In this document: in pieces, positions 21,797 to 43,010 of the stretch
Position numbering within the stretch: position 1 is the stretch's first letter
Layout: each line of letters starts with the position of its first letter
NCBI GenBank assembly: GCA_964489045.1
Contig: CAZAXI010000002.1
Span: forward strand, 21,375 to 85,374
Length of the DNA stretch: 64,000 bases
Direction of reading: 5' to 3'
Source: an uncultured Granulicella sp.
GTDB taxonomy: Bacteria > Acidobacteriota > Terriglobia > Terriglobales > Acidobacteriaceae
Notes under the pieces: model-generated
The model's database searches: none
What the model was told of the DNA's origin: nothing
Seen by the model: the letters and a program-made list of their open reading frames with translations, nothing else
Translations under genes and position numbers: made by a program

Positions 21797-21926
21797 CCGT
21801 CTTTATAACATCCTTATGTGGGTCAGCGCACATAGGCCCATGGTGGCGCGCCGGCAACAGGCGTGATTGCGGTCACAAATGGACTCTGGCCAGGGGCGGG
21901 AAAATGCTAAAAGGAGAGCCTTGCCC

Positions 21927-23135
21927 ATGCTTGCCACCCATAACTCTGCCGTTCGTGCGATTGACATTGCGATCACATTCGTCGGCCGGGAGGAGCAGCG
22001 GCTGCGTGCGATCATCGAGTCGGATGCGTTTTCGGGCGACGAGAAGTTCCAGGCCCTGCGCGACCTGGCCTATCTGTCGGGGGTGGTGGTCCGGGAGCTA
22101 GCCGATATGGCGGAGCCGGACGGGACGACCGAGAAGATGGCGGACTTGATGGCGAAGGTTGAGCCAGCCGCTGCGCAGGCTTCGAAGCGGCCGGCGCAAA
22201 AGAGCAGCAGTGGAGCGCGCACCGGAGTAAACGCGGCGTCGTTTCATCAGGACGTGTGCGACAACCTCTCCGAGGGGGTGTACTTCGTCGATAAAACGCG
22301 GAAGATCACCTACTGGAATCGCGGCGCGCGGAATCTGAGCGGTTTCCAGCGCGATGAAGCGATCGGAAGGCATTGCTACGACAACTTCCTGCAGCACGTG
22401 GACGCGGAGGGCAAGGCCCTCTGCCATCACGGCTGTCCGCTGGCGGCGACGCTGAAGGACGGCCAGGCCCGGGAGGCTGAAGTTTTCCTCCATCACAAGG
22501 ACGGTCACAGGGTCCCGGTTGCGGTGCGGGTGTCGCCGGTGACGGACAACTCGGGCAAGCTGATTGGCGCGGTCGAGGTGTTCAGCAATATCGCCGGGCA
22601 GAAGGAGCTGGAGCGGCGCGCGAAGGAGCTGGAGGCGCTTGCGTACCGCGATTTGCTGACGGGGCTGTCGAGCCGCCGCCACATCGAGCTGAAGCTGCGC
22701 CAGGCGCTGGAAGAAGTGCGGGAGTTTGGCAGAAAAGCCGGGGTGCTGCTGCTGGACATCGACGGCTTCAAGCGAGTGAACGACCGGCATGGCCATCCCG
22801 CCGGCGATGTCGTGCTGAAGAACGTGGGCGAGAGGCTGACCGAGGTGCTGCGGCCGGGCGATGCGGCGGGGCGTTGGGGCGGCGAGGAGTTTTTGCTGGT
22901 TGCGCTGGATGTGAATCTGCCGGAGTTGGAAGAGATTGCAGAGAGATGCCGGGGTGCGATCGCGTCCTGCCGGATTCCAGTGGAAGGAGACCGGGTGAAC
23001 GTAACCGCGTCGGTGGGAGCTGCGCTGCTGAAGCAGGGCGACTCGGCCGAGGCGGCGGTGAAGCGGGCGGATGAGCTGCTGTATGTGGCGAAGTGCCAGG
23101 GTGGAGATGCGGTGAGGGTGCGGGTGGAAGTGTGA
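21927..23135 (+). CDS. PAS-GGDEF diguanylate cyclase
   Basis: PAS domain, DLLTGL, DIDGFKRVNDRHGH..GD, RPGD I-site, GGEEF. AAGGAG RBS before 21927. Confidence 0.92.
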   Translation: MLATHNSAVRAIDIAITFVGREEQRLRAIIESDAFSGDEKFQALRDLAYLSGVVVRELADMAEPDGTTEKMADLMAKVEPAAAQASKRPAQKSSSGARTGVNAASFHQDVCDNLSEGVYFVDKTRKITYWNRGARNLSGFQRDEAIGRHCYDNFLQHVDAEGKALCHHGCPLAATLKDGQAREAEVFLHHKDGHRVPVAVRVSPVTDNSGKLIGAVEVFSNIAGQKELERRAKELEALAYRDLLTGLSSRRHIELKLRQALEEVREFGRKAGVLLLDIDGFKRVNDRHGHPAGDVVLKNVGERLTEVLRPGDAAGRWGGEEFLLVALDVNLPELEEIAERCRGAIASCRIPVEGDRVNVTASVGAALLKQGDSAEAAVKRADELLYVAKCQGGDAVRVRVEV

Positions 23136-23221
23136 GTGTGGGGGGCGGGGTTCGTGGGCCTACGACAGCGAAAAGGTGCGCCAGGTCACGTGTGCTGTGG
23201 ACTGCGGGAGGTTCCCCGATC

Positions 23222-23689
23222 ATGGAGAAGAAGAAGCTGATAATTGTCGGAACCACTCACGAGCAGCAAAAGGCGTCTGACGCAGGTTCGATCCTAGATA
23301 AGAAACTTCGGCACTATGTTAGGCGATATGGTGTTTCCGTTGTTATTGAAGAATGGAAATTCGAAGACGACAAGACGGTTGGCAAGCTCCTAGCTGACAG
23401 TCTCTCTATCGCATGGTGCAATGCAGGAACGCCACTGGAGGAGCAGTTCGAGACCTATGACCCATACCCGATTTGGTTGGACGATGGTTCGTGCGAGCCG
23501 GAGCGGCCCTACGGCCCTATCGAGGCTCAAGTAAGAAGGGAAGCCTACATGATCGATAAGATTAATTCGGCGATGAATGATCACGCAGTCGGAGTATTTG
23601 TGTGTGGCATGGGGCACATGCACTCTGTCTCAGAAAAGCTTCATCAGGGCGGCTATGAGGTGGAAGGGTTTAGCTGCTTGGACCGCTAG
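23222..23689 (+). CDS. Hypothetical protein, TraB/GumN/Tiki-like motif pattern
   Basis: IIVGTTH...VVIEE...FVCGMGH. More AT-rich than its flanks. Confidence 0.55.
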   Translation: MEKKKLIIVGTTHEQQKASDAGSILDKKLRHYVRRYGVSVVIEEWKFEDDKTVGKLLADSLSIAWCNAGTPLEEQFETYDPYPIWLDDGSCEPERPYGPIEAQVRREAYMIDKINSAMNDHAVGVFVCGMGHMHSVSEKLHQGGYEVEGFSCLDR

Positions 23690-23722
23690 GCCCGAAACGG
23701 GAGAAGTTAGGTGTGGCGAGTC

Positions 23723-24397
23723 TTAAGGAGTCCCCGTTGGAAACCACTTGTGCTTTTCAATTTGGTACTTCAAAGCCTTGTACGCGCGCCCAGTAAGGTT
23801 GGCTCTGTTCGTCGCCAGGAACTTCGGGAGGTAATCCGAATAGCACAGGCTGGCGTCCCAAATCTGTCCGTTCTTAGTAGCGATCTCGGCGAAGTCGCGC
23901 GCTTGGTTCTTGGAAAACCTATCAAAATAGGGTGCGAGGGGTTCGATCACTGCCTCTGCGGCGCGAAACGAATTTGCATCGCGTCGTACTTGGCCCAACA
24001 GAGCATCGATTGCGGCCGCCGGAAACTTGGTTCCGATTGCATCAAGAAGGATTTCGGCATCGATGCCGGTTTCGGCAATCTTATGACTCTGGATATGGGA
24101 GATGAATCCGTATGGAACAGTTCCATCGAGTGATAGCGGAATTATTAGAACCGCACCCCGGTTAACACTGATGCCTGTCTCTTGGTCGCACCACTTGGAT
24201 TTACTGAATTCCTTGCTAAGCAGAGGAATAAATATGTCACACTCTTCAAGTTCTTGTAAGATACGGTTCTTCCATTCCTCGGACACACGTAGGTCGTTGT
24301 GGGCCAGGAAGGACTTGATTTGGAACTTTTCCAGAGCGGCTTTTACCGCTGCTCCGTGCTTCTTATCTTTCGTTGAGTAACTTATGAATGCTTTCAA
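23723..24397 (-). CDS. TIR-domain protein (TIR_2) with helical C-terminal domain
   Basis: TTG start, AFISYS, FLAH, FIPLLSKEFSKSKWCDQE (catalytic-position Glu), IIPL. Confidence 0.88.
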   Translation of the reverse strand: MKAFISYSTKDKKHGAAVKAALEKFQIKSFLAHNDLRVSEEWKNRILQELEECDIFIPLLSKEFSKSKWCDQETGISVNRGAVLIIPLSLDGTVPYGFISHIQSHKIAETGIDAEILLDAIGTKFPAAAIDALLGQVRRDANSFRAAEAVIEPLAPYFDRFSKNQARDFAEIATKNGQIWDASLCYSDYLPKFLATNRANLTGRAYKALKYQIEKHKWFPTGTP

Positions 24398-24435
24398 ACC
24401 TTCGATACCTCAGGGATCGACTCCTGCCGGGCCCT

Positions 24436-24501
24436 CTACTCCTTAATGGAGGTGCCGAGGGCGCGCATTTTGCGGTAGAGGTGGGAGCGTTGCAGGCCGA
24501 G
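24436..24501 (-). repeat. Diverged direct copy of the last 22 codons of ntrX
   Basis: 59/66 nt identical to 28352-28417. Encodes LGLQRSHLYRKMRALGTSIKE* vs LGLERSHLYRKMKALGISIKE*. Confidence 0.92.
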
Positions 24502-24712
24502 CTTTCTTCGTGCCTGGGCGACGCTTGCCGGAGACTCGGCCGGAGTGGCGCTTGTCCCTGGCGAGGACCTGCGCGTAGATGGGTTTGGTCCAGTCGATGT
24601 CATGGGGCAAGGGAAGTTTGCCCTTCAGCGAACCGTAGCCCTCGATCAGTACACTCGGATCGGGCTCAAGAGCCTTGGTTCGCTTGACAGTGACTTTTGC
24701 GGCGGCTGGCAT
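24443..24712 (-). CDS. Small orphan antitoxin-like protein (possibly a remnant)
   Basis: GYGSLKGKLPLPHDIDWTKP resembles antitoxin C-terminal GxLKGK...DF..P motifs. GAAGGGAG RBS. The tail reads out of frame through the ntrX copy. Confidence 0.45.
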   Translation of the reverse strand: MPAAAKVTVKRTKALEPDPSVLIEGYGSLKGKLPLPHDIDWTKPIYAQVLARDKRHSGRVSGKRRPGTKKARPATLPPLPQNARPRHLH

Positions 24713-24787
24713 CGCGGACTCCCTTCTGCATTATGGCACTGATTGACGAAGGGGCAAGAAGTTCCTTTGGGGTGGGTGGTGCGAAGG

Positions 24788-24810
24788 CCACATCTCAGAG
24801 GCGAGATGTG
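24788..24810. repeat. REP-like hairpin CACATCTC-AGAGGC-GAGATGTG
   Basis: Perfect 8-bp stem just downstream of the TPR-GT stop codon. Confidence 0.5.
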
Positions 24811-24820
24811 CGGCACTCGG

Positions 24821-27800
24821 CTATTGCGCTATGCGGGGGATGTCGATGTGGTCGGGTGGGAGGGCGGCGTGGTAGCGGTCGTAGATGGCGGTGTAGGCGG
24901 CTTCGAGGTGGAGGGTGAAGGCTGGGGTGTCGAAGAGGGGAGCGGTGAGGCGGCTTTGCTGGAGGCGACGGCGGAGGGATTGAAGGCGCGCGGGCGAGTG
25001 TGCGAGCGCGACGGCGCGTTGCTCGTAGTCGGATTCGGTGGTGGCGATCAGTTGGATGAGGTCTGACTCGGGGAGGGCCATGGCGCGGAGCAGGCTGGCG
25101 GCGACGCGGCCGGCGAAGGTTTCGCCGCTGCGGGTGAGCAAGGGCAGGCCGGTCCAGAGGGCGTCGCTGGCGGTGGTGTGGGCGTTGTAGGGGAGGGTGT
25201 CGAGGAAGAGATCGGCGAGCGCGTGGCGGGCGAGGTGCTCGGGCAGGGGGAGTGGGCGGGCGAAGATGAGGCGCTCGGGAGCGATGTTGCGGCGGGCAGC
25301 TTCGGCGCGCAGGTTGGCGATGGTGGCGGGGTTTTCTTCGAGCAGCCACAGCACGCTCGCGTCGACGCGCGCCATGATGCGCATCCAGAGGTCGAAGACG
25401 GCGGGAGTGATTTTGTAGGCGTTATTGAAGCAGCAGAAGACGAACGCGGCGTCGGGAATCCCCTCTTCAGCGCGCGAGCGGGGAGCAGCGGAGATGAGGC
25501 GGCGCCGGTCGTTAGGCTGATAGCTGTCGGGCAGGCGAACGATTTTTTCGGTGTAGTGGCCGCGGCTGGAGTCGGGGATGATGGTGGGATCGGCGATGAG
25601 GTAGTCGATGGTATCGGCGGCCATGGTCCCGGGATAGCCGAGGTAGTTGACCTGGATGGGTGCGGCGCGGTAACTGAAGATGCCGGCGCGATGGTCGCGG
25701 GTGAAGCCTTTCAGGTCGACGGCGATGTCGACTTCGAGGGAGCGGCTGAGCTCGGCGATTTGGCGATCGGGCAGGTTGCGGACGTCGAGAAATCGGTCCA
25801 TTGCGGAGGAGACGCGCCGGCTCATCTGGTCGGCGCGGTCGGGGCCGAAGGAGAAGCCGAGGATTTCGAAGCGGGTGCGGTCGTGGCGCTCGAAGAGCTC
25901 GGCCATCAGATAGCTGGTGGCGTGGTTGTAGAAGTCGGCGGAGAAGTAGCCAATGCGAATGCGGTCGCGCCGGGGCCGGCGTGGGATGGCGGCCAGGGCG
26001 GTGTGGGCAGGATGCTGGTCGAGGGTGTAGATCTCGGCGGCGCGTTTTTGCACGGCGGGCGATTCGCTGAAGGCGAGGGTGGCGAAGGGGATGGCGGCTT
26101 TTTCGCCGTGGCCTATGGCGGCTTCGATCTGGCGGAGGTCGGCTGCGTCGTCCTGCCAGTCGCAGAGCGCACGCTTGGTGAAGAGGCGCAGGCCAGGGAG
26201 GTATTTGTAGCTGGGGTCGAGCTGGAGGGCGTGGTTTAGGCTCTCGAGGGCGGACGGATATTGCTTGAGCGCCATCAGGACGTCGCCGCGGTTGCGATGG
26301 GCGTCGGCGTAGTCCGGCTGGAGAGCGATGGCGCGGTCGTAGCTTTCGAGTGCGGCCTCGTATTGGAACAGAGAATGCAGAACGCTGCCGCGATTGTTGT
26401 GGGCTTCGGCGCGATTGGGATTCAGGCGTATGGCTTGGTCGTGACTCTCGATGGCGGTGAGCAGCGGCGGTGGGTCGGTGAGCGCCTGATGCCATGCGTC
26501 GGCAACGGAGTTCCAGTCGAAGGTAGAGCGGGCCCACGCGCGCATGGAGTCGCGGGCGGATTCGGCGGGCGGGTTGCGCAGGAGATCGACGGCGGCACGG
26601 ACGAATTGGGCTTTCTGTTCCGGGTCCGTCATGGCGACGTGAAGCAGCCCGGGCTGGAGCCAGTTGTCCTTGGTTTTGGTGGAGTGGATAAAGACCCCGC
26701 CGTGGCCGGATTTTTCACCAAGTGCGGCGAAGTCGGTAGTAATGGGGATGGCGCCGGCGGCCATGGCTTTCGAGAGGGAGATGCAGTCGATTTCGGCCAT
26801 CTCGGATGGGTAGGCGAAGATGTTGGCGCGGAGGTAGAGACGGGCCACGTCGGAGTGGCTGATGCGACCGAGCTCTGCAACGCCGAGCTGGTGCATGCGG
26901 GTCTGCAGGGCGGTCTTCCATTGCATCATGGTGGGGTTCGAGGCGTGGAAGGTGTCCCACACATCCCAGCCGTAGGCCCACTCGGCTTTGGCGCCTGGGA
27001 CCTGCAGCTTGATCTGCTCGAAGCAGTCGAGGAAGGCTTCGAGGCTGCGATCGGCGGACGAGGTGTTGATGAGGAGCAGCGGATCGCGGGGAGCGGCCGG
27101 CTCGAAGAGCTGCGCGTCGATGCCGTTGGGGACGATGGCGAACTTGTCGTCGGGGATGGCGGGGAAGAGGGAGCGGTGGAAGCGGGACTTAACGAAGATC
27201 TTGTGGATGCGCGCGAGGTTGGCGGGCGGGAGGTCGGCGTCGGAGAAGACGTCGTGAAGGTCGAGGATGACTTTGCCGGAGTTGATGTTGTAGTCGGCGA
27301 GATGGGGATAGCGCCAGAGGATGGTGACGTCCTGCCGGTCGCGGTAGTTCCACAGCCAGTAGGGCTTCCAGGTGACGCCGTCATAGATCTGTTCGTGCTC
27401 GCCGCATTTGGCGTAGACGGTGACATTCCAGCCGCGGTGGTGGAGCAGGCGGGAGAGCCAGAGGATGGCCTCCTCGGAGCCTCCGATGCCGGTTGCGTTG
27501 ACAGAGCCGGGGTTCCAGGTTTCGGTGGCGGGTCCGCAATAGAAGACGAGATCGCGGCCGCTGGAGGCGTGCTTGGAGAAGTTTTCGTCGGCCAGGTTGA
27601 GGGCCTGCAGCGCATTGCCGCGGTTGGTGTAGGCGTCGGCAAAATCGGGTCGAAGTTGGATGGCGCGGTCGTAGCTGGCGACCGCCTGCCGATATTGCTT
27701 GAGGCCCTGGAGAGCGCTGCCGCGGTTGTTGAGAGCTTCGGGATAGTCGGGGCGAAGTGCAAGGGCGCGATCGCAGCTCTCAAGCGCGGCCTGATACTGC

Positions 27801-28336
27801 CCGAGGGAGTAGAGCGCGTTGCCGCGGTTGGAGTGGGCTTCGGCGTAGTTGGGGTTGAGGGCGATGGCGCGGTCGTGGCTCTCGAGTGCGGCGGAGAACT
27901 GTTTGAGCGTGTGCAGCGCGCTGCCGCGGTTGTGCCAGGCTTCCGCGTGGCGGAGATTCAGGCGGATGGCGCGGTCGTAGCTCTCGACGGCCGCGTGGTG
28001 CTGCCCCAGCATGAAGAGCGCATTGGCGCGGTTGACGTGGAACTCGGCGTTGTTGGGATCGGATGCGATGGCGCGGTCGATCAGTTCGAGCGCGGCCGAC
28101 GGCTGTCCGGTCTGGCAGGCGATGACGCCGAGCAGATGCAGCGCAATGGGGTGGCTGGGGTTGGATTCGAGGACCTGGCGATAGAGAGCTTCGGCCTGGG
28201 GAAGTTGGCCGGCCTGATGGCGAGCGATGGCCTGCTGGAGGAGCGCGTCGATCGGGGAAGGCGCGGGGGTTGCAGGCGGGGGATTTGCCGGACGGTGCTG
28301 GGGATGGCGTGAGGGTTTGCCGGGTTTTTTCTTCAT
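24821..28336 (-). CDS. TPR protein with an internal GT4-like domain and a C-terminal GT41 (OGT/SPINDLY-like) domain
   Basis: ~7 TPRs, then GIGGSEEA...VPNGID...YPSEMAEIDCISLSKAMAAG (GT-B), 3 further TPRs, then RIGYFSADF.NH, APIQVNYLGYPGT, FNNAYKITP and DTLPYNAHTTASDALWTGLP. Confidence 0.9.
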   Translation of the reverse strand: MKKKPGKPSRHPQHRPANPPPATPAPSPIDALLQQAIARHQAGQLPQAEALYRQVLESNPSHPIALHLLGVIACQTGQPSAALELIDRAIASDPNNAEFHVNRANALFMLGQHHAAVESYDRAIRLNLRHAEAWHNRGSALHTLKQFSAALESHDRAIALNPNYAEAHSNRGNALYSLGQYQAALESCDRALALRPDYPEALNNRGSALQGLKQYRQAVASYDRAIQLRPDFADAYTNRGNALQALNLADENFSKHASSGRDLVFYCGPATETWNPGSVNATGIGGSEEAILWLSRLLHHRGWNVTVYAKCGEHEQIYDGVTWKPYWLWNYRDRQDVTILWRYPHLADYNINSGKVILDLHDVFSDADLPPANLARIHKIFVKSRFHRSLFPAIPDDKFAIVPNGIDAQLFEPAAPRDPLLLINTSSADRSLEAFLDCFEQIKLQVPGAKAEWAYGWDVWDTFHASNPTMMQWKTALQTRMHQLGVAELGRISHSDVARLYLRANIFAYPSEMAEIDCISLSKAMAAGAIPITTDFAALGEKSGHGGVFIHSTKTKDNWLQPGLLHVAMTDPEQKAQFVRAAVDLLRNPPAESARDSMRAWARSTFDWNSVADAWHQALTDPPPLLTAIESHDQAIRLNPNRAEAHNNRGSVLHSLFQYEAALESYDRAIALQPDYADAHRNRGDVLMALKQYPSALESLNHALQLDPSYKYLPGLRLFTKRALCDWQDDAADLRQIEAAIGHGEKAAIPFATLAFSESPAVQKRAAEIYTLDQHPAHTALAAIPRRPRRDRIRIGYFSADFYNHATSYLMAELFERHDRTRFEILGFSFGPDRADQMSRRVSSAMDRFLDVRNLPDRQIAELSRSLEVDIAVDLKGFTRDHRAGIFSYRAAPIQVNYLGYPGTMAADTIDYLIADPTIIPDSSRGHYTEKIVRLPDSYQPNDRRRLISAAPRSRAEEGIPDAAFVFCCFNNAYKITPAVFDLWMRIMARVDASVLWLLEENPATIANLRAEAARRNIAPERLIFARPLPLPEHLARHALADLFLDTLPYNAHTTASDALWTGLPLLTRSGETFAGRVAASLLRAMALPESDLIQLIATTESDYEQRAVALAHSPARLQSLRRRLQQSRLTAPLFDTPAFTLHLEAAYTAIYDRYHAALPPDHIDIPRIAQ

Positions 28337-28351
28337 GCGGGTGGGGGTGGC

Positions 28352-29728
28352 CTACTCCTTGATGGAGATGCCGAGGGCCTTCATTTTGCGGTAGAGGTGG
28401 GAGCGTTCGAGGCCGAGAGCTTCGGCGGTGCGGGAGACATTGCCGTGGCACTCGTCGAGTTTTTTCAAGATATAGTCGCGTTCGTAGGCATCGCGGGCTT
28501 CCTGCAGCGTGGAGAAGTCTTCGCGGACGCCGGAGGATTTGGCGGCTTCGCGGGCGACCAGGGCAGGCAGGTGCTTGCGTTCGATGCGCTGCGACTTGGG
28601 ATTGAGGATGAGTACGCGCTCGACCAGATTGCGCAGCTCGCGGACGTTGCCGGGCCAGTTGTAGTGGCGGAGAGCGTCGAGAGCGTCGGGATGCATTTCG
28701 ACGTGAGGACGGCCGTACTGGGTACCGAACTCCTGCAGGAATTCCTTGACCAGGAGGGGAATGTCTTCCTTGCGGTCGCGCAGCGGCGGGACGAAGAAGG
28801 GGATGACGTTGAGGCGGTAGAAGAGGTCTTCGCGGAAGTTGCCGCGGGCGATCTCCTCTTCGAGGTCCTTGTTGGTGGCGGCGATGACGCGGACGTCGAC
28901 GTGGATGGGTTGAGTAGCGCCGACGGGAAGAAAGCGCTGCTCATCCAATGCCCGCAAGACTCTCGCTTGCGTCTTCAAGCTCATGTCGCCGACTTCGTCG
29001 AGGAAGAGGGTGCCGCCGTCGGCGCGTTCGAACGTCCCGCGCTTTTCGGCGGGCGTGCCGGGCGCCATGCCGGTGATGGCGCCACGGCGGTAGCCGAAGA
29101 GTTCGGTTTCGATGTGGTCCTCGGGGATGGCGGCGCAGTTGAGCTCGACGAAGACGCGGTCCTTGCGGAGGGATTCGGCGTGCATGGCGCGGCCGATGAG
29201 TTCCTTGCCGGTGCCGGACTCGCCATAGATAAGGACGCGGCCGTTCGTGGGGGCCATCAGCTTGATCTGCTGGCGGAGGGCCTTCATGGGGACCGAGTTG
29301 CCGGTGACGCAACTGCGGAAGCTGAGCTGGCGGGCAAATTCTCTATTGTCCTCGCGGAGCTGGCGGGTGTTGATGGCGTTCTTGAGGACGATGAGGGTGC
29401 GGTCGAGCGAGAGCGGCTTCTCCAGGAAGTCATACGCGCCGAGCTTGGTGGCGCGCACCGCCGCTTCGATGGTCCCGTGGCCGGAGATGATGATGACCTC
29501 GGGCAGATGCGCCGAGTCCATGTGGCGAATGTCGGCGAGGGCGTCGAGGCCGTCGCGGTCGGGGAGCCAGATGTCGAGCAGGACGACGTCGTAGATGGCG
29601 TCGGCGAGCAGGGTGAGGGCCTCGTGCGCAGTGGCGGCGGTGGCCACGGCGTAACCCTCCTCGGTGAGGATGGATTCGAGGGAGTCGCGGATTTCAGCTT
29701 CGTCGTCGACGATCAGAACGTGGTTCAT
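28352..29728 (-). CDS. ntrX: NtrX-like response regulator (REC-AAA+-HTH)
   Basis: LLDIWLP receiver, GESGTGKE, FLDEV, FREDLFYRLNV, WPGNVREL, and a Fis HTH ending LERSHLYRKMK. GAFTGA loop altered. Confidence 0.85.
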   Translation of the reverse strand: MNHVLIVDDEAEIRDSLESILTEEGYAVATAATAHEALTLLADAIYDVVLLDIWLPDRDGLDALADIRHMDSAHLPEVIIISGHGTIEAAVRATKLGAYDFLEKPLSLDRTLIVLKNAINTRQLREDNREFARQLSFRSCVTGNSVPMKALRQQIKLMAPTNGRVLIYGESGTGKELIGRAMHAESLRKDRVFVELNCAAIPEDHIETELFGYRRGAITGMAPGTPAEKRGTFERADGGTLFLDEVGDMSLKTQARVLRALDEQRFLPVGATQPIHVDVRVIAATNKDLEEEIARGNFREDLFYRLNVIPFFVPPLRDRKEDIPLLVKEFLQEFGTQYGRPHVEMHPDALDALRHYNWPGNVRELRNLVERVLILNPKSQRIERKHLPALVAREAAKSSGVREDFSTLQEARDAYERDYILKKLDECHGNVSRTAEALGLERSHLYRKMKALGISIKE

Positions 29729-29844: not shown

Positions 29845-30240
29845 CTACAGAAGCCTTGTTTCGTATTTCTGCTTGGCGAGGAGCGCAACCGCTTTCTTGT
29901 CGAAGGAGACGAACGTCTCTGCACCGAGCCAGTGTCCCTCATAGGCAATGATCCCGTCTGCAAAATCGCCACCGGCATTCAAGACTGCGAGCCCAGCCTC
30001 GACTGCCGGCCGATTGAGACTAACACTTTCCGTATCGGCCAACGCTCGGATGGCGGCTGCGATGTCCTCCCGATCGAATTCGTATAACCGGCGCAGTACC
30101 CAGACAAACTCGCACAAGCAAGGAATCGTTACCGCGATGATCTCGGCGCTCTTCAGAATCTTGTCTGCGGCCGCCGCCTGTTTTTCGTCGTCACGCACGA
30201 CAGCTCGAATGAGCACATTGGTATCTACAGTAATCTTCAT
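29845..30240 (-). CDS. vapC: PIN-domain toxin (VapC-like)
   Basis: VDTNVLIR, CEFVWVL, GDFADGII, SFDKK. ATGA overlap with the upstream antitoxin. Confidence 0.88.
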   Translation of the reverse strand: MKITVDTNVLIRAVVRDDEKQAAAADKILKSAEIIAVTIPCLCEFVWVLRRLYEFDREDIAAAIRALADTESVSLNRPAVEAGLAVLNAGGDFADGIIAYEGHWLGAETFVSFDKKAVALLAKQKYETRLL

Positions 30241-30488
30241 TTCTTTCCTGCCCAGCCCTCTTCCGCTGCCTGGTTGATCTGGTCGATGGTGGCGGTCTTC
30301 TTGGTCCGACCCGCGAGCAGACCCAGGAAGGCATTTATCTTCATGGATGGCCGAGGCGCTTTCAGAACTCCGCGTCCTCCGGGGATCAACTCGAGTTCAA
30401 TTTTTTCTCCCGGTTGAATACCAAGGTGGCGCAGGACTTCTTTGCGAAATGTGACCTGTCCCCGGGAAGTGACTGTAAGTGTTTTCAT
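30237..30488 (-). CDS. AbrB/MazE-type antitoxin
   Basis: TVTSRGQVTFRKEVLRHLGIQPGEKIE swapped-hairpin motif. Confidence 0.88.
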   Translation of the reverse strand: MKTLTVTSRGQVTFRKEVLRHLGIQPGEKIELELIPGGRGVLKAPRPSMKINAFLGLLAGRTKKTATIDQINQAAEEGWAGKK

Positions 30489-34030: not shown

Positions 34031-37000
34031 CTACTGCACAGTCAGGCTGACGGTGGTGGTTTCCTGGAGCGAGCCACTGGTTCCGACGACAGTGACCGTA
34101 TAGGTCTGGGGAGCGGGACCAAAGTAGCCTCCGCCGCATCCGCTGATTGCCAGGGCGGGAAGAATGGCAAGCACGGCCAGGCCGAGGAGCATCCAGCGTT
34201 GAGTGGAGCGGCGGAGCCGGCGGCCGGCGGCGAGTCCCAGCAGCGGTAGACCGGCAAGCACGGCGAGCAAGGGCACAGGATTCTGCCGATGCGGCTCAGG
34301 AGTAGCCAGGCGGGCCAGGCCGGTGGACGTCTGGATGGACATCACGCTGGGTGCGCCTGCGCTTCCAGGGGTTACCGCGGGCGGTTGGAACGAGACCTGC
34401 GCGCCCGCGGGAAGGCCGGTGGCCGAGAGCGTGACCAGGTTGTTGAAGCTTCCTCCAAGCGGCACGATGTTGAGGTTGTACTGGGCCACCGCGCCCGGCT
34501 GGATGCTGGCAGCCGGCGTCGAAGAGTTGACGGCGTAGATTCCGGCGCTTCCCGTGCCGGTGAGCGTGGCCGATTGCGGCGAGCCGGCGGCGTTGTCGGC
34601 GACTGAGATCGCAGCGGTGAGGCTGGCTGCCGAGGCCGGGGTGAACGTGACCGTGATGGTGCAGGTCGCTCCCACGGCTAGCGAACTACCGCAGTTATTG
34701 GTCTCGCCGAAGCTGCTGGCGTTGGCGCCGGTGACGGAGATGCTGGTGATGGTCAGAGCGGTGTTGCCGGGATTGGACAGGGTCAGGGGTAGCGTCGACG
34801 AAGTATTGATGGTGGTGCTGGGGAAGGCGAGCGGGTTGGGGGTGAGTACGGCTTGAGGAACCAGCGGCGCAGTCCCGGTGCCGGTGAGGGTGGCCGACTG
34901 CGGCGAGCCGGTGGCGTTATCGGCGACTGAGATCGCAGCGGTGAGGCTGGCTGCCGAGGCCGGGGTGAACGTGACCGTGATGGTGCAGGTCGCTCCCGCG
35001 GCTAGCGAGCTACCGCAGTTATTGGTCTCGCCGAAGCTGCTGGCATTCGTGCCCGTCACTGAGATGCTGGTGATGGTGAGGGCTGCGGTTCCGGGATTCG
35101 ACAGCGTCATGGGCAAGGCTGTCGCCGGAGTGCCGACCAGCGTGTTGGGGAAGGCGAGCGGGTTGGGGCTGAGCACGGCTTGAGGCGCAGTTCCGGTGCC
35201 GGTGAGGGTGGCTGACTGCGGTGAGCCGGTGGCGTTATCGGCAACCGAGATCGCAGCGCTGAGGCTGCCTGCGGATGCGGGCGTAAAGGTGACGGTGATG
35301 GTGCAGGTTGCGCTCGCGGCCAACGAAGAGCCGCAGTTATTGGTTTCGCCGAAGCTGCTGGCATTGGTACCGGTGACAGCAATGCTAGTAATGGTGAGGG
35401 CTGCGGTGCCGGGGTTCGACAGGGTGATGGGCAATGCGGTCGCCGCGGTGCCCACTCGCGTGCTTGGGAAGGCCAGTGGATTGGGGGCGAGCATAGCCTG
35501 CGGCTGAGTCCCGGTGCCGGTGACGGTGGCTGACTGCGGCGAACCGGTCGCGTTGTCGGCAACCGAGATCGCAGCCGTGAGACCGCCGGTCGACCCGGGC
35601 GTGAACGTGACTGTGATCGTGCAGTTCGCCCCCGCGGCAAGCGAGCTGCCGCAGTTGTTCGCCTGCCCAAAGCTACTGGCGTTAGTCCCCGTCACCGAGA
35701 TGCCGGTAATGGTGAGGGCAGCAGTGCCAGGGTTCGACAGCGTCATGGGCAGCGCCGTCGCCGCTGTGCCGACCAGCGTGCTGGGGAAGGGCAGCGGGTT
35801 GGGGCTCAGCACAGCCTGCGGGGCAGTTCCAGTGCCCGTGATCACGGCAGACTGCGGCGAGCCGGTCGCGTTATCCGCAACCGAGATGGCAGCAGTAAGG
35901 CTGCCCGTGGACCCCGGAGTAAACGCGACGGTGATGGTGCAGGTTGCTCCCGCGGCTAGCGAACCACCGCAGTTATTCGACTGCCCAAAGCTGCTGGCAT
36001 TGGTGCCCGTCACCGAAATGCTGGTGATGGTCAACGCGGCGTTGCCGGGATTGGACAGCGTCATCGGCATGGTTGATGCCGGAGTGCCGACCAACGTGCC
36101 GGGGAATGCCAGTGGATTGGGGCTGAGCACAGCCTGAGGCGCAGCCGCCGGGATACCCGTTCCGCTGAGTGTGATCGTGACCGGCGCGGGCGCGGCGCCT
36201 CCGCCTGAGCTAGAGTAGGGGACGGTCGCGGTGACGTTGTTGTAGCTCTGCGCTAAGGTAGGCGTGAAGGTAACGCTGAGGTTGCAGCTTGCGCCGACGG
36301 CGATGCCTGTGGTGCAGGTGCCGAGCCCAACGGAGTAGACGGAGTTGCCGGAAACGGGAGTGCCGAAGGTGGCGGTGTAGAGGTCGCCGTTGTTGGTGAG
36401 GGTGATGGTCTGGGCGGCGCTGGTGGTGTTCACGATCTGATTGGGGAAGGTCAGAGAGGGTGACGGGGGAGTTACGTACACGCCGTAGGCGAATGCCGTG
36501 AGCGCGATTGTCTGGGTTGTGCTGGTGGTGTTCAGCGAGTTGCTGGTGACGGTGATGCTGCCGCTGAAGACGCCGGCGTGGGCCGGCGTCACCACGACGG
36601 CGATCTGGCAGAGTGCTCCAGGCGCGACCGTGCCGCCGTTGCTGCAGTTAGTGCCGGTTGGCGCGGTCTGGATGCTGAACGGATTGCCGGTGATGGCGAT
36701 GTTCGAGATGGTCAGGGTCTGGTTGCCGCCGTTGTAGATGGTGGCGATCTGCTGCGGGCTTGCCGTGCCCAGCGCCTGAGACTGTTCTCCGAACGCGATC
36801 AGCCCTTGCGTCCGGTCCACCTTGTCGAGGTTGGTGTAGTTGCCGACGTAGACGGTGCCATCGGGAGCTATCGACATTCCGAGCGGCGATGCGGTGGAAT
36901 CGAGGTATGCCAAGGCGGTCGAGTAGCTGGATGCAGCCAATTCGGCAACTCCGCCGAGGGTATAGCGGGTTGCATATACGGTGTCTGCGGGGTCGACCCC

Positions 37001-40000
37001 AATGCCTTCGCCCGCACCGACGGTATTGATCTGGGACTGGACTCCACCTGAGGTGATCTCATTGATTTCGTAGCCGCCGACGAAGAGATTCTCATTGCTG
37101 TCGACGATGAGGTTGGACGCCTGGGTGTTGGCCGGAGTGATGAGGGTGGTTGCTGCTGTGCCCGTGCCAACGATGGGAACCGTATAGACGTGTACGTAGT
37201 CAGTCTCGTAGATATTGCCGGTGTTGCCTACGCCGAGCGATTGGATGTAGGTGTTCGGAACGGGGAAGGGCACGGAGCCCTGGATGGCCTGGACGGTGTC
37301 GTAGGTCTTGGTCGGGCCATTGTAGGTCTGGTCGGCGATATAGAGAACGCCGGCGCCATCAATGCCGATACCGCGCGGGGAGTTCAGCCCCGTGACTGGG
37401 AGGGTGCCAACTACTCCGGCTCTGGTGACGGTGTAGATGGTGTTGGAGTTATCACCCAGAATGTAGACGGTCCCATTCTCGTCGACGATGGAGGTGTAGA
37501 GGTAGTTGGCATTGTTGAGAATTGGATTGGTGATTACGCCGGGCTGCACCATCGAGAACGGCCCCTGACCGATGCCATAGATCAGCAGCGTCGCCAGGCG
37601 CGTGGTTCCGCTCATCAGGAAGATGGCGTCCCTGCGGCCGCCGGGATACTGGGGCTGGAAGGTGACCGGGACCGAGCAGGTCTCGCTGCCCACCGCGCCA
37701 GTACAACTTACGGCCCCGATGCTGTAGCTCAGGCCGTAGTGCAGCGTGGCCGTGGGCGTAAACCCGGCGCCGTAGCCATTCATCTGGAAGGTCGCGGTGA
37801 GTGTCTGCGCCGACGCCAGCGGGATGCCTACCGGAGCGGGGTTGAAGACCAGCGGCGACGGAGCCACCACGTTGGCGGCAAGCCCGGTCCCGGTGAGCGT
37901 AATCGACTGTGGCGAGTTGCCGGCGTTGTCGGACACGGTGAGGCTGGCGGTGTTCGCGCCGGTGGCGGTTGGCGTGAAGTTGAGCGAGATATTGCAACTG
38001 GCGCCGGCCGCCAGCGTCGTTCCGCAAGCACTGCTGTTCAAGCCGAACGCGTTTGCATTGGTCCCGGTGACCGAGATGGAGATACTCGACAAGGTCGCGT
38101 TGCCGGTGTTCATCAGCACCGCAATCATGGAGGACGCGCTGGTGGTATTGATGGTCTGATTCCCGAAGGCAACCGGCGAAGGCGTGAGCGAGACCACGGG
38201 CGCAGGAATGGAGACACCGGTGCCGGCAAGTTTGATGGTCTGCGCCGCGAGCGTGCCGTTGCTGTTGACCGCGATCGCGCCGGTGTATGCGATCGCCGAG
38301 GTTGGGGTAAAGGTGACGGTAAGGGTGCAGGTCGCACCCGATGCAAGCGAGGTGAGACCCACGCAGGTGCCGCCGGTAACGGCAAACGCTCCCGTCGCCG
38401 TATAGGTCGTCTGCGAAAGCGTTAGCGTCGCGTTGCCGGTGTTCTCGAACGTGACCGTTTGCGGTGAGCTGGTGTTGCCAACATTCACGCTGCCGAACTG
38501 CAGATAGCCGGCCGGCCCCGAAGACATCACCGCGTCCGTCGAGAGGTTGTAGCCGTAATCCGGAATGATCAGATCGCCGTTGCTGTCCATAGCCGGAATA
38601 CCGATCCCGCCGATCTGGGCTGCGGTCGCCTCGCCGCCGGTGCTACCGGAGCCGCTACCGGCGACGGTGGTGATGTTGCCATTTACAGCCACCTTCCGCA
38701 CGGCATCAAAGCCCGGGGGATTGCCATTCGAATCCGACGCGATGAAGATGTCGCCGGCCAGGTCGACGGCGACTGCCGTGGCGTAGATCTCGGCGTTGGT
38801 CGCGGCTGCGCCATCGCCCATATCGCCCGCGGTGCCATTGCCTGCGACCGTGGTAATCATCCCCGTCGATACGGTGATCTTGCGGATGCGGTTGTTGTTG
38901 GTGTCCGCGATGTAGACGTTGCCGGCTGTATCAGTGGCAACGGCGCTCGGGAAGTTCACCTCGGCGGTGTTCGCAGCGATGTTGTCGCCGTTGTAGCCAG
39001 GTGTGCCCGAGCCGCTGGTGCCGAGTACGCCGGCGACAATAGTGGTCGCCCCAGAGGAGGCGGCAACCTTCAGGACAAGCGACGAATTGGTGCACGCAAT
39101 ATACAGGTTGTTCGATGAATCGAAGGCAATGCCTTCCGGTCCTGGGATGACCGTGTTGGGCGCGTTGGCGCCGGTGAAGAAGCCGTTGCCGGTCCCGGCA
39201 TAGGTGGTGATAACGCCGGTGGACGGCACCACCTTGCGGATGCGGAAGTTGCCGTTATCGGCGATATAGACGTTGTTTGAAGAATCGATCGCGATCCCAA
39301 TCGGGTTGCTCAGATGAGCCAAGGTGGCTTGCCCGTTGTCTCCGCTAAAACTGCCGGGGCCGTAACCGGGGACGCCGGCGAACGCCGTGATGTTGCCGTT
39401 AACGTCGAATTTGCGAACGTAATTTGCTCCGGAATCGACCACGTAGATATTTCCCAGGGAATCCTGGGCGACGGCGGCGGGCGAGTCGAAGGTGGCTAAC
39501 AGCGCTGATCCGCCATCTCCCGTGCCATTCACGGTCCCCGAGCCCGTTCCCGCGATTACGTTCAACTGCGACGGAGTGAACTGAAGCTGAGCTACCTGCG
39601 AGCTTTGTGTGACGACCACAGTTCGCTGCACCTGCGGCGCGGCGGAGTAGCTGGAGTTTCCGGCCTGGTTGGCGTCGATAACGAAGGTACCGGCGCTGGT
39701 GACCGTCAGCGTGCTGCCGGTAATGCTGCCGGTGCCGGTGCTAGTGCCGTCGATGGTGAAGACGACCGGGTTGCCGGATGCGCCTCCAGTGGCGACCAGA
39801 GGAATGGTCAGTCCCGAGGAGTAGGTCACCGGAGTTGTGGGTTGGGTGAAGCTGATGGTCTGCGGGGTCAGCGAAGCGATGCCTGTTCCGGTGAGCAAAA
39901 AACTCTGCGTAGCGTCATTCGAGTTTTCATACGGAATATCCTCGACCACGTAGAGATTATCGTCGGTGAATGTAAGCTGGCCGGACAGTGCGCCACTCGT

Positions 40001-42511
40001 CTGGGGAGCGAAGCTGATCAACACGCTGCATACACCGCTAACTGGAATGACGCCCGGGTTGCTGGCGGTTTGGGGGATGTTGGGACAGGCGTTTGTGGCG
40101 CCGGTCGCCCAGGTCCAATTCGCACTGATCGCGGGATTGATTCCTGAGGGGGATGGGATTTCCAGCGTGAGCGGCGCATTCCCTTTGTTTTCGACAAAGT
40201 AGGTGTAGGGGTCGGGAGCGCTTTGGCCGACGTTGGTGGTGCCGAGCCAGCTCCAGGAGGACGGAGTGTTGAAATCGAATCGATAGACAACTGTTCCGTC
40301 GGAGGCAAAGACATTCCCGTTCCCGTCGAGTCCCAGACCAAAGCTTGAACTGAAACCGCCCCAATTGCTGATGATTGTGGGCGAAGAGGGGATGACACCG
40401 TTGACGGCCTGGATTTCGACAAGGCCCTCAGTGCCATCCGATTCCCAAACGTTGCCCGCCGCATCGACTGCCAGTTCTTCCGGACTGGCCAGACCGCAAT
40501 AGACCCTGTTGATTGTCGGCGATGCGGGAACTTGGCCTGAAAACGCCGGGATCTCATACAGGCAGGTGTCAGTGCTGTTTCTGGGTGTGAAAAAGATGTC
40601 GCCGTTCTGATCAACGGCCAGAGCGCCGGGATTGGTGCTGGTTTCGATGGAGCGAATTGTGGGCGAGCTGGGAATCGAGCCGCCAACGGCAACGATCTCG
40701 TGGAGGCCCCCGGAATCGCCCACAAAGACATCGCCCAGACCGTCGATGGCGGTTGCACTGGGAGTCACCCATCCCGAACCGAGCGCGACGATCGTGGGCG
40801 AGGCAGGGATGACGCCGCCAATGGCCTCGGCCTCGAGGATCCGGCTGGAGCCGGCGTCATTCCAAATCAGGTCGCCGGCTCCGTCGATGGCGATGGAGCT
40901 GGGAAGGTTGGCCGGCGCGACCGTCTTCTGAGTCTGATAGGAAGGGGCGACCAGCTCGATGATTGCGTCGCCGGCCTGGTCGGCGATAAAGATATCGTGG
41001 TTCCTGTCGACAGCGACACCCTCGGGCTTCGTAAGGCCCGCGCCCAAAGTCAGACCCGAGGTACCAATGGAACTGACGCTCCCGTAATACGTGCTGTTCG
41101 CGCTATAGTAGGCGGCGAAGTTGACCATGGGCCCCACACCCACGCCGAGCAGGGGTGCGGTAGCGATGGGCGCACCGCCGCTGGTGCTGTACAGTTGCAC
41201 CGCTCCCATCCGGGCACCGGGGTAGAGGGGCGTCAACTTGACGATGACAATGCAGGTGTCGGCGTTCGTGCCGTTGCCGTAGACATAACTCGTGCCGTTG
41301 GTGGTGCAGGTACCGGTGAGGTTATCTTTGAAGTCCTGGCTAGTGGCGCCTTGCGTATAGACGGCGGGCGCTGCGATGGTGCCTTGAGTTGGGAAGCCAA
41401 ACAGGAGGAATTGATACGGGTCCTGTGCGGATGTTTGGTTCGCCTCGGAACCTGCGCCGGTAGTCAACTGGCCGAAGAGTGCTGCCTGCGCCAGCTCGTT
41501 GACCTCGTCACCGCCGGTGAAGAAGACGTTATTGTGAGCATCGATAGCAATACTGCCGACATTCTGGGTATTGCCGACATTGTCGCTGCTTTCGAAGGTG
41601 ATGATTTGGGGGTTGCTGGGAACGCTGCCGCCCGAAGCCAGCATCTCCTTGAGCTCAGAATTCCCATTGTCCGCGACAAAGACATCGCCCTGTGAGTCGA
41701 CGGCCACGCCATAGGGTTTGCTGAATCCACTGCCGAGAACCTTGATGGTTGGATTGCTGGCGGGGATCGATCCGCCAACGGCAATCATTTCCTCGATTTC
41801 GCTGTTGTTCGTGTCCGCGACAAAGACGTCACCGCTCGCATCGACCCACACGCCTCTGGGATTGGAGAAATCGTACCAGGCAACGGCGGTGGGATTCGCG
41901 GGGATCGATCCGCCCACGGCCTCCAGCTCAATGACTCCGTCGTTATTGCCTTCTGTAACCCAAAGATTGCCCCTGCTGTCAAAGGCCAGCCCCCAGGGCT
42001 CGTCTGCCCCGGTCGAGATGGTGATGGTATTGATTGTGGGCGACGCGGGGATGGTACCGTTCACGGCGACGATTTCAAAGACTTTGCCGTTTTGGGTCGC
42101 ATCGGCCACAAAGACGTCGCCTACTGCGTCTACGGCGATGCCGGTTGGAAGGCCGAAGGTGCCGGAGGGCACATTCACTTGCTGCCCGGACGATTCGAGC
42201 GGAACGACTCCGTTCACCGCTGGAAACTCGATAAGTCCGTTAAACTCAGTCGTCACCCATAGATTTCCCTGAGCGTCGACGGCGGTCCCGAATGCAGAGG
42301 AGGTGCTGCTGCCAACCCACCGTTGTTCGCCCATGAAAACGGCCGACTGGGCATGAGCGATCAGCGCCGTGCCCAGGCCGAGGAATACCAGCAAGGCTCT
42401 GAGCAGCCAATTGCCGCGGCGGCGAAGCGCGCCCCGTGCGCGGACCTCGCGTATCGCGAGGGCTTCTTTGCACCGGTTGGTGTGCCCAACATGGAGAGCT
42501 TGGCCTGTCAT
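34031..42511 (-). CDS. Giant secreted surface protein: several NHL-type beta-propellers, ~10 Ig-like (choice-of-anchor D/ASH-like) domains, C-terminal TM hairpin with lipobox
   Basis: GGAAGGAG RBS before ATG 42511, signal peptide (AHA-Q), P.GiAvD..GnvfvAD repeats, Cys-paired Ig repeats, and RRLRR...LAISGCGGG near the end. Confidence 0.9.
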   Translation of the reverse strand: MTGQALHVGHTNRCKEALAIREVRARGALRRRGNWLLRALLVFLGLGTALIAHAQSAVFMGEQRWVGSSTSSAFGTAVDAQGNLWVTTEFNGLIEFPAVNGVVPLESSGQQVNVPSGTFGLPTGIAVDAVGDVFVADATQNGKVFEIVAVNGTIPASPTINTITISTGADEPWGLAFDSRGNLWVTEGNNDGVIELEAVGGSIPANPTAVAWYDFSNPRGVWVDASGDVFVADTNNSEIEEMIAVGGSIPASNPTIKVLGSGFSKPYGVAVDSQGDVFVADNGNSELKEMLASGGSVPSNPQIITFESSDNVGNTQNVGSIAIDAHNNVFFTGGDEVNELAQAALFGQLTTGAGSEANQTSAQDPYQFLLFGFPTQGTIAAPAVYTQGATSQDFKDNLTGTCTTNGTSYVYGNGTNADTCIVIVKLTPLYPGARMGAVQLYSTSGGAPIATAPLLGVGVGPMVNFAAYYSANSTYYGSVSSIGTSGLTLGAGLTKPEGVAVDRNHDIFIADQAGDAIIELVAPSYQTQKTVAPANLPSSIAIDGAGDLIWNDAGSSRILEAEAIGGVIPASPTIVALGSGWVTPSATAIDGLGDVFVGDSGGLHEIVAVGGSIPSSPTIRSIETSTNPGALAVDQNGDIFFTPRNSTDTCLYEIPAFSGQVPASPTINRVYCGLASPEELAVDAAGNVWESDGTEGLVEIQAVNGVIPSSPTIISNWGGFSSSFGLGLDGNGNVFASDGTVVYRFDFNTPSSWSWLGTTNVGQSAPDPYTYFVENKGNAPLTLEIPSPSGINPAISANWTWATGATNACPNIPQTASNPGVIPVSGVCSVLISFAPQTSGALSGQLTFTDDNLYVVEDIPYENSNDATQSFLLTGTGIASLTPQTISFTQPTTPVTYSSGLTIPLVATGGASGNPVVFTIDGTSTGTGSITGSTLTVTSAGTFVIDANQAGNSSYSAAPQVQRTVVVTQSSQVAQLQFTPSQLNVIAGTGSGTVNGTGDGGSALLATFDSPAAVAQDSLGNIYVVDSGANYVRKFDVNGNITAFAGVPGYGPGSFSGDNGQATLAHLSNPIGIAIDSSNNVYIADNGNFRIRKVVPSTGVITTYAGTGNGFFTGANAPNTVIPGPEGIAFDSSNNLYIACTNSSLVLKVAASSGATTIVAGVLGTSGSGTPGYNGDNIAANTAEVNFPSAVATDTAGNVYIADTNNNRIRKITVSTGMITTVAGNGTAGDMGDGAAATNAEIYATAVAVDLAGDIFIASDSNGNPPGFDAVRKVAVNGNITTVAGSGSGSTGGEATAAQIGGIGIPAMDSNGDLIIPDYGYNLSTDAVMSSGPAGYLQFGSVNVGNTSSPQTVTFENTGNATLTLSQTTYTATGAFAVTGGTCVGLTSLASGATCTLTVTFTPTSAIAYTGAIAVNSNGTLAAQTIKLAGTGVSIPAPVVSLTPSPVAFGNQTINTTSASSMIAVLMNTGNATLSSISISVTGTNANAFGLNSSACGTTLAAGASCNISLNFTPTATGANTASLTVSDNAGNSPQSITLTGTGLAANVVAPSPLVFNPAPVGIPLASAQTLTATFQMNGYGAGFTPTATLHYGLSYSIGAVSCTGAVGSETCSVPVTFQPQYPGGRRDAIFLMSGTTRLATLLIYGIGQGPFSMVQPGVITNPILNNANYLYTSIVDENGTVYILGDNSNTIYTVTRAGVVGTLPVTGLNSPRGIGIDGAGVLYIADQTYNGPTKTYDTVQAIQGSVPFPVPNTYIQSLGVGNTGNIYETDYVHVYTVPIVGTGTAATTLITPANTQASNLIVDSNENLFVGGYEINEITSGGVQSQINTVGAGEGIGVDPADTVYATRYTLGGVAELAASSYSTALAYLDSTASPLGMSIAPDGTVYVGNYTNLDKVDRTQGLIAFGEQSQALGTASPQQIATIYNGGNQTLTISNIAITGNPFSIQTAPTGTNCSNGGTVAPGALCQIAVVVTPAHAGVFSGSITVTSNSLNTTSTTQTIALTAFAYGVYVTPPSPSLTFPNQIVNTTSAAQTITLTNNGDLYTATFGTPVSGNSVYSVGLGTCTTGIAVGASCNLSVTFTPTLAQSYNNVTATVPYSSSGGGAAPAPVTITLSGTGIPAAAPQAVLSPNPLAFPGTLVGTPASTMPMTLSNPGNAALTITSISVTGTNASSFGQSNNCGGSLAAGATCTITVAFTPGSTGSLTAAISVADNATGSPQSAVITGTGTAPQAVLSPNPLPFPSTLVGTAATALPMTLSNPGTAALTITGISVTGTNASSFGQANNCGSSLAAGANCTITVTFTPGSTGGLTAAISVADNATGSPQSATVTGTGTQPQAMLAPNPLAFPSTRVGTAATALPITLSNPGTAALTITSIAVTGTNASSFGETNNCGSSLAASATCTITVTFTPASAGSLSAAISVADNATGSPQSATLTGTGTAPQAVLSPNPLAFPNTLVGTPATALPMTLSNPGTAALTITSISVTGTNASSFGETNNCGSSLAAGATCTITVTFTPASAASLTAAISVADNATGSPQSATLTGTGTAPLVPQAVLTPNPLAFPSTTINTSSTLPLTLSNPGNTALTITSISVTGANASSFGETNNCGSSLAVGATCTITVTFTPASAASLTAAISVADNAAGSPQSATLTGTGSAGIYAVNSSTPAASIQPGAVAQYNLNIVPLGGSFNNLVTLSATGLPAGAQVSFQPPAVTPGSAGAPSVMSIQTSTGLARLATPEPHRQNPVPLLAVLAGLPLLGLAAGRRLRRSTQRWMLLGLAVLAILPALAISGCGGGYFGPAPQTYTVTVVGTSGSLQETTTVSLTVQ
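34551..36139 (-). repeat. Five tandem ~318-bp intragenic Ig-domain repeats
   Basis: The unit PQAVLSPNPLAFP...NCGSSLAAGATCTITVTFTP...SPQSATLTGTG recurs five times with high DNA similarity. Confidence 0.92.
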
Positions 42512-43010
42512 AGCAACTCCTTCCTGTACCCCTCTTGAGCGCTTCAGAACGAACAAATCCGTCCTGCAGGGAATCTGCGAACTCATGCGGCGCACGACCG
42601 CCGCAGCAGCTGGGGAGGGTGGAGAGAATCTCCTGCTATTTCAATTGCAAATGATGGCCCGGAATATTTGTGACAGGTTTAACTCGACAGGCGTCGGCAA
42701 TGCGTGAAGCAGTCAGAGGAACCGAACGGACCGCTATCTCATACCCTGAAACACGCCACCGATTCCAAAGACTATACACCAGAGCAGTTATGCCTAAACA
42801 GTGGCTCTGAAAATGCTTTGTTGACGATGGGGCTTTACCGCGAAATGAGGAACAAGCCTTCGATCTGGATTGTGCCCCACCTGGACAACTGAGGGCCGTA
42901 CCGCATCAGTGCCGCCAACCTTGAACGATAGGCTACAAGCCCTGTTGCTTTCCTCAACGGCCAGCCGCCAGCGCGGGACTTGTCTGGAAAGACGATGGGT
43001 CATCTGAGCG

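Follow-up and report, generated by a model that had tools for sequence, protein, structure and literature searches.

In a 64,000-nt stretch of the genome of an uncultured Granulicella sp. (GCA_964489045.1, contig CAZAXI010000002.1, positions 21,375 to 85,374; hereafter the window, in which all coordinates are given unless another contig is named), the ntrX gene, encoding an NtrX-like response regulator, is followed by accessory genes and then by a second copy of its own last 66 nt. The copy is probably a recombination scar, resulting from the merger of two versions of the variable slot behind ntrX by homology-facilitated illegitimate recombination, and not the end of a mobile element. The observations behind this reading are the repeat itself, the point at which it is fused to an antitoxin-like open reading frame (ORF), the missing toxin, the variability of the slot, the lack of an integrase in it, a joint between era and ntrX in related genomes, and six more orphan gene tails elsewhere in the genome under study (G000; 5.34 Mb, 425 contigs, 4.7% contamination), which carries the window on its contig C2.

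The ntrX tail copy and its joint

The last 66 nt of ntrX (28352..28417, minus strand; the proximal, coding tail) recur downstream at 24436..24501 on the same strand, with 59 of 66 nt identical and an intact stop codon, at a spacing of 3916 nt, in agreement with the preliminary description of this DNA, which had placed the repeat about 3.9 kb away. The two tails differ at seven sites, and the longest exact run shared by them is 26 nt. The copy is unique in the genome (E 2e-18, next-best match E 0.17), and a search with an ntrX-tail profile returned the same two places only (E 3.5e-10 for the copy, 0.64 for the next match). It corresponds to the tail of the ntrX ortholog; a Fis-HTH paralog, the other source considered in the preliminary description, was rejected, as the paralog tails reach 45-68% at the protein level and give no match at the DNA level. 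Contigs with no differences span the joints in run X3 (23655-24482 and 24462-24898), the whole tail copy in run X8 (24353-24533), and the antitoxin joint in run X9 (24428-24878); therefore, an assembly artefact is an unlikely origin of the repeat. The runs holding the stretch are wetland and peat metagenomes; X3, X8 and X9, none of which is flagged as the source sample, may stem from one sampling campaign. Identical contigs over the TIR gene, the tail copy and the antitoxin were also found in RNA run X10; we do not take them as evidence of expression.

The upstream border of the copy lies inside an antitoxin-like (VapB-like) ORF of 89 aa (24443..24712, minus strand). The preliminary description had placed a tetratricopeptide repeat (TPR) gene and this ORF between the two tails; the former does lie there, the latter enters the copy and continues through it in a frame other than that of ntrX. 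Database homologs of the ORF are 53-82 aa long; of the five closest ones with full coverage, three have RPDVAA as their C-terminus. Here the antitoxin homology ends at the RP of this motif, for which the opening 8 bases of the tail copy code; in the antitoxin frame the bases of the joint read A-R-P, in that of ntrX L-G-L. Protein conservation thus suggests a microhomology of 8-9 nt between the antitoxin gene and ntrX (CTCGGCCT, possibly plus G; 24493..24501, minus strand). In G083 and G001, more distant homologs of the antitoxin have a PIN-type gene next in line, the pair standing directly behind ntrX in G083; no PIN toxin follows the 89-aa ORF in G000. Because the homology stops at the first bases of the copy and the PIN partner is absent, the ORF is, to judge from its sequence, a truncated antitoxin, cut near its natural end, fused to the ntrX tail at the microhomology and deprived of its toxin. 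The intact pair of G083 (L113/L073, G083:C4:31563-32410) is located between ntrX and era, and its antitoxin family has no Pfam or NCBIfam match. A metagenome scan with the antitoxin query gave no confirmed case among 599 stretches.

An illegitimate joint at a short microhomology is a feature of homology-facilitated illegitimate recombination. Such joints are represented here by the 8-9 nt deduced from proteins at the antitoxin and by about 20 nt between era and ntrX in G206, seen in DNA (see below). In the simplest account, two crossovers between resident DNA and that of a relative, a homologous one and one at the microhomology near the gene end, would be sufficient. One slot version would have read ntrX - TPR and glycosyltransferase (TPR-GT) gene - REP-like repeat - antitoxin - (toxin), the other ntrX - TIR gene - small ORF - GGDEF gene. 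DNA of a relative would have been taken up, one side pairing by normal homology (RecA) and the other being joined where the 3' end of the antitoxin gene met a point 66 nt before the ntrX stop; both cargo sets would thereby be retained, a spare tail left and the toxin lost. The uptake of DNA, the pairing by RecA and the chemistry of the joint are steps that we infer. Genes comEC and dprA are present in the genome.

This type of recombination is summarised in PMC2884548 and has been proposed for sequential displacement in PMC5361080. The type VI secretion system effector-immunity and Rhs loci of these two papers resemble the ntrX slot in having a conserved upstream anchor, foreign DNA joined illegitimately, an orphan 3' end downstream, and no integrase. 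They differ in that ordinary genes serve as anchors in G000 (response regulator, glycosyltransferase, rhodanese, dihydroorotase-like), the cargo bears no relation to what the anchor does, each locus has one extra tail instead of a long array, and the newest unit does not always come first. The scar is a further instance of this known type of 3'-end displacement.

The slot behind ntrX in related genomes

G139 is the sister of G000 at three genes, namely ntrX, ntrY, and the cytochrome gene further downstream (support 100/100), and the ntrX, ntrY, GGDEF, and cytochrome flanks align with relatives, as homologous anchors of homology-facilitated illegitimate recombination should. In G139 the ntrX end matches the proximal tail at 64 of 66 nt, the TPR-GT gene stands right behind it (93.6%), and the GGDEF gene is shared (91%); the TPR-GT gene follows ntrX in G087, too (81%). 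The stretch 23136-24824, comprising the REP-like element, the antitoxin, the tail copy, the TIR gene, and a 155-aa ORF, is absent from G139, which has about 700 bp of other DNA instead. The proposal of the preliminary description that the entire 3.9-kb cargo was incoming is therefore doubtful, while its expectation of variable cargo behind ntrX holds in the relatives, as 72 loci form 37 clusters by their first 800 nt.

The orphan tail, of the KMRALG type, is identical at 61 of 66 nt to the ntrX ends of G173 and G125, at 59 to that of its own genome, and at 58 to that of G139. It shares with G173 and G125 a CGC codon missing from both its own ntrX and that of G139. KMRALG-type ends occur in G173, G125 and G087, and the three form no supported clade. 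The ntrX gene has 70 lineage-specific changes in G000 vs. 31 in G139; they cluster in patches, which points to repeated recombination within the gene. The best patch, gene nt 741-822 (window ~28900-29000), holds 17 of 35 variable sites, a value reached in none of 100 shuffles, and looks like a short foreign recombination tract. The changes in this patch are mostly silent, and its 82 nt differ at 16-25 sites from those of each relative compared.

The order of events at ntrX can be argued in both directions. We consider it slightly the better guess that the tail, the TIR gene and the 155-aa ORF came last, since G139 has the TPR-GT gene and the proximal end as well, the tail belongs to the type of another lineage, and the TIR gene is AT-rich. 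The converse, that the tail is the displaced older end, as first proposed, is somewhat less probable; it is favoured by the same direction in G013/G206 and in five of the six other tail loci, and by the TPR-GT gene being somewhat less diverged from G139. At four-fold sites this divergence is 0.118 for the TPR-GT gene, 0.126 for the GGDEF gene, and 0.195 for the pooled other ORFs, the first value being near the low end of the single-ORF range (0.10-0.33) and the ORF list including some overlapping shadow ORFs; for these two reasons, divergence from G139 was not used to fix the order.

Adjacent direct copies of the ntrX tail were found in three of 217 genomes of the genus (G000, G013 and G206), representing two independent events. 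The 35-aa tail query used in the genus and family scans can miss copies under ~20 codons. In the genus, 26 of the 217 genomes gave at least two tail matches, and 24 of them were re-queried (G000 and G108 left out). In the family, 400 genomes were drawn and 104 multi-match ones, chosen by eye with G242 left out, were re-queried; no adjacent copy was identified among the 400 with this query. Eight genomes of the family draw have a second strong match on another contig: in G484, G248, G505 and G551 it is due to contig overlap or parallel ntrX pieces, and in G362, G291, G585 and G628 it was left unchecked in the family count. Unpublished genomes G009, G108, G109, G242, and G265 enter the denominators only. 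Two further candidates were set aside, namely a 16-kb inverted self-duplication (91%) including ntrX in G155 (L079, G155:C10:110000-129900), probably an assembly error, and a weak degenerate tail match in G018 (E 2.6e-4). A metagenome scan with the tail pattern yielded two loci, neither of them duplicated.

In G013 and G206 the copy begins at about -86, i.e., 20 nt earlier than the -66 of G000. The era gene is located downstream of ntrX in 35 of 83 loci, and in G206 some 130 nt of the era 3' end, decayed and inverted, stand before the copy; the era/ntrX joint, shared by G013, has an imperfect microhomology of ~20 nt at the DNA level (score 115 vs. a shuffle maximum of 35). Read from the sequence, the G206 structure is ntrX-cargo-era' joined to 'ntrX-cargo-era, that is, two slot versions in tandem. 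The cargo of G013 and G206 differs at 7 of 619 nt and their ntrX body at 51 of 1310 (p 5e-4), and they have different cargo past the distal tail; the homology of their joint region and of ~40 nt of distal flank is in keeping with a single inherited event. Since the flank of their distal tail directly follows ntrX in G193 and G023, this tail is the older end. Thus, displacement of the old ntrX end, as claimed in the preliminary description, does occur in G013/G206, with the order in G000 being nearly balanced as set out above; the stacked array described there was an overstatement, as G000 has a single extra tail and no three-tail locus was found. Among published titles on ntrX-tail duplication or the gene-tail pattern in Acidobacteriota none was found, in searches that did not include ntrX as a term.

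Orphan gene tails and alternative origins

The genome-wide scan for duplicated gene termini that the preliminary description had suggested was performed for two-copy direct repeats of 30-200 nt, at least 85% identical and 0.2-25 kb apart. It gave 15 pairs, seven of which consist of the 3' end of a protein gene and a downstream orphan: ntrX, C55 (L165, G000:C55:18705-19435), C161 (G000:C161:5020-5848), C32 (C32:19281-20324), C90 (C90:2998-4041), C102 (C102:5819-6450), and C302 (C302:2379-3368). Five of the seven were classed by script (binomial 8e-6 at a generous chance rate of 2%), C55 and C102 by inspection. The genes are unrelated, the copies are 35-113 nt long and 87-100% alike, and no border motif common to the seven loci was visible by eye. 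At the six other loci, 0.5-1 kb of small accessory genes, in many cases toxin-antitoxin pairs, come before the orphan tail; represented in this cargo are RelB/ParE, antitoxin-PIN, ParD/ParE, and RelE-type pairs, TIGR03435/DUF3738 genes, and one gene which we take to be PEP-CTERM-like. The cleanest example in the genome is C55, about 2 kb from comEC, where a RelB/ParE pair stands between identical 35-nt copies of the end of a small gene and G139 has the exact empty site. In G139 the cargo is also absent at C161, C90, and C102, the proximal cargo is kept at C302, and a remnant is found at C32. The copy or flank more like that of G139 is the distal one at C55, C161, C302, C32, and C102, and the proximal one at C90 and ntrX. 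The proximal end at C102 lengthens the C-terminus of the dihydroorotase-like protein relative to G139. Behind the C161 gene, G036 and G125 carry the same antitoxin-PIN pair with no second tail in the stretch compared, so donor-type alleles exist for this locus; for ntrX, the antitoxin-PIN pair of G083 is a distant homolog.

Among the remaining eight pairs are one duplicated gene start, one tRNA-like fragment, present twice at a distance of 6 kb at the end of a contig (G000:C143:5902-11964), and one post-stop flank duplicated around a 562-aa gene (G000:C18:5573-7689). A gene-tail copy was seen upstream of its own gene (G000:C33:25333-27452), and a mirror of the tail pattern was seen at a 5' end (G000:C316:1235-1834): 57 nt near the start of a gene, which is presumably HrcA-like, are duplicated upstream, with a small lipoprotein-like gene between the copies.

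Several points weigh against the merging of two slot versions. The microhomology at ntrX is derived from protein homologs and not from donor DNA, and no donor with an ntrX end directly before this TIR gene was found among the TIR-homolog and ntrX loci examined. As comEC is present also in 10 of 14 control genomes, it is no proof of competence. The six other loci have complete-looking proximal cargo genes, with the orphan copy ~4-60 nt past their stop codon; random breakage would predict less tidy borders, and selection or some cassette-like step has to be invoked. Finally, the scar could be a later deletion inside a larger, integrase-made insertion.

Integrase-free circular cassettes would provide such a step: a unit of gene tail plus cargo would circularise once at a microhomology, or pop out between two tails, and enter relatives through one crossover at the corresponding gene end, thereby spreading. 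The tidy cargo of the six other loci fits this route, and so do the near-identical cargo of G013 and G206 with different genes past the distal tail, and C55 with its exact empty site. However, no circle or excised joint was seen among the joints shown (15 of 159, in contigs, which drop rare variants), the ntrX tails share only 26 exact nt, the homologous joint and distal flank of G013/G206 fit one inherited event, and the end product would be indistinguishable from that of a linear two-crossover event. Unconventional circularizable structures, as described in PMC7843796, are similar in that cargo lies between direct repeats without a role in transposition, but their repeats are long and near-identical and their circles were detected by PCR; the repeats in G000 measure 35-113 nt at 87-100%, and those at ntrX, of 66 nt and 89%, have no longer exact run than the one given above. 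On balance, the circular route is unlikely.

A decayed site-specific element, of the cis-mobilizable element (CIME) type, appears still more doubtful. Here an integrase-bearing element would have displaced the old tail, and a later deletion at a microhomology would have taken out the integrase together with the toxin and part of the right att site. In favour of such an element, PMC5704250 documents tandem accretion at the 3' ends of genes, the distal tail represents the original end in G013/G206 and is, itself or by its flank, the more G139-like one in five of the six other loci, and 12 matches to tyrosine and 3 to serine recombinases are found elsewhere in the genome. As claimed in the preliminary description, no integrase is present in the slot, and contig C2 has no tyrosine recombinase. 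Among 83 ntrX-downstream loci, of which 68 extend at least 8 kb downstream, a search with profiles built from the genome's own 10 + 3 sequences, by which distant families can be missed, gave one tyrosine match, ~16 kb away, and no serine match; cognate integrase-bearing elements at the same site, as expected for CIME accretion, did not emerge from this search. The two ntrX events have different left borders (-66 and about -86), both fused inside genes, which argues against a fixed att crossover. Moreover, the 35-aa query identified no larger tail-flanked island in the 217 genomes of the genus and 400 of the family, and seven unrelated target genes would require several integrases. CIMEs and the accretion of integrative and conjugative or mobilizable elements (PMC5704250) share with the ntrX slot a cargo without integrase flanked by a copy of the target-gene end; they differ from it in that the ntrX slots have no common crossover, joints inside genes at microhomologies, and no cognate integrase. 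As to an integron cassette array, neither a repeated border between the cargo genes nor a tyrosine recombinase on C2 was seen, in a check made without an attC model.

Internal tandem duplication, i.e., unequal crossing-over in one lineage followed by the gain of different cargo, is very improbable: it would also produce an era fragment/ntrX tail joint like that of G206, but the three-base CGC codon of the copy is shared with other lineages and absent from its own ntrX and from G139, and the cargo on the two sides is unrelated. An assembly artefact or chance similarity, for which the fragmentation and contamination of the genome could speak, is largely refuted by the E value of 2e-18, the seven differing sites, and the bridging contigs, and has next to no probability left.

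Taken as a merger of two slot versions, the ntrX case alone is a rare scar (two independent events in 217 genus genomes), which tells little about ntrX biology. Its value is in being a readable natural case of gene capture by anchor plus microhomology, for which two joints are resolved and a closely matching sister genome is at hand. Of greater importance is the wider pattern, in which orphan gene tails next to accessory genes account for 7 of the 15 unique short local repeats; such tails offer a simple signature for counting the gain of defence and toxin-antitoxin genes in uncultured soil and peat bacteria where no enzymes of mobile elements take part. A broader reading, as improbable as the circles on which it depends, is that this lineage of peat and wetland bacteria practises integrase-free gene capture genome-wide, with short tails serving as landing pads and units of one or two genes (toxin-antitoxin, TIR, surface proteins) spreading among relatives as tail-plus-cargo circles via DNA uptake; if true, almost any gene end could become a cassette site.

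Gene content of the slot and its surroundings

The order downstream is ntrX, TPR/GT1/GT41 gene, REP-like element, 89-aa ORF, tail copy, TIR_2 gene, 155-aa ORF, and PAS-GGDEF gene, the last two being convergent. The NtrX-like sigma-54 response regulator (28352..29728, minus strand; 458 aa) has the Pfam domains Response_reg, Sigma54_activat and HTH_8; its best NCBIfam match is NF051870 NtrX, with 483 bits, under the cut-off of 600. The TPR-GT gene (24821..28336, minus strand) encodes 1171 aa with TPR, GT1-like and GT41 glycosyltransferase parts. It is host-like in composition (GC 0.656, GC at third codon positions 0.84), in contrast to the AT-rich TIR gene and 155-aa ORF (GC 0.50-0.51). The palindromic repeat behind it (24774..24821), with ~20 matches in the genome, is labelled REP-like tentatively.

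The TIR_2-domain gene (23723..24397, minus strand; 224 aa, PF13676, E 7e-16, GC 0.495) starts 38 nt beyond the tail copy, within the 40 bp previously noted. Homologs were found in 5 of 217 genus genomes, and one of the closest is from an Acidobacteriaceae genome; no ntrX tail was seen near the homologs in the loci scanned (three of the four other genus loci and three of six from GTDB). Thoeris requires a ThsB-type TIR protein and a nearby ThsA effector. Matches of the TIR gene to the ThsB type are weak (E 4e-6), no ThsA-like gene was seen beside it, and two other slot proteins scanned gave no Thoeris match; the slot therefore does not qualify as Thoeris. The TIR homologs in G237 (L075) and G097 (L076) have one or two more TIR-like genes next to them, which suggests that such genes occur in small clusters.

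The 155-aa ORF (23222..23689, plus strand; GC 0.509) has a weak TraB/GumN match below the cut-off, and the convergent PAS-GGDEF gene (21867..23135, plus strand) forms the far border of the variable stretch. A second variable slot lies inside the operon, the gap between ntrY and ntrX being ~2.8 kb in G139 vs. ~0.9 kb in G000, where it contains a pair of an AbrB/MazE-like antitoxin and a PIN toxin (29845-30488). Further along, a predicted surface protein of 2854 aa with five tandem repeats of ~318 nt is encoded at 34031-42595; this region did not align to the G139 stretch fetched.

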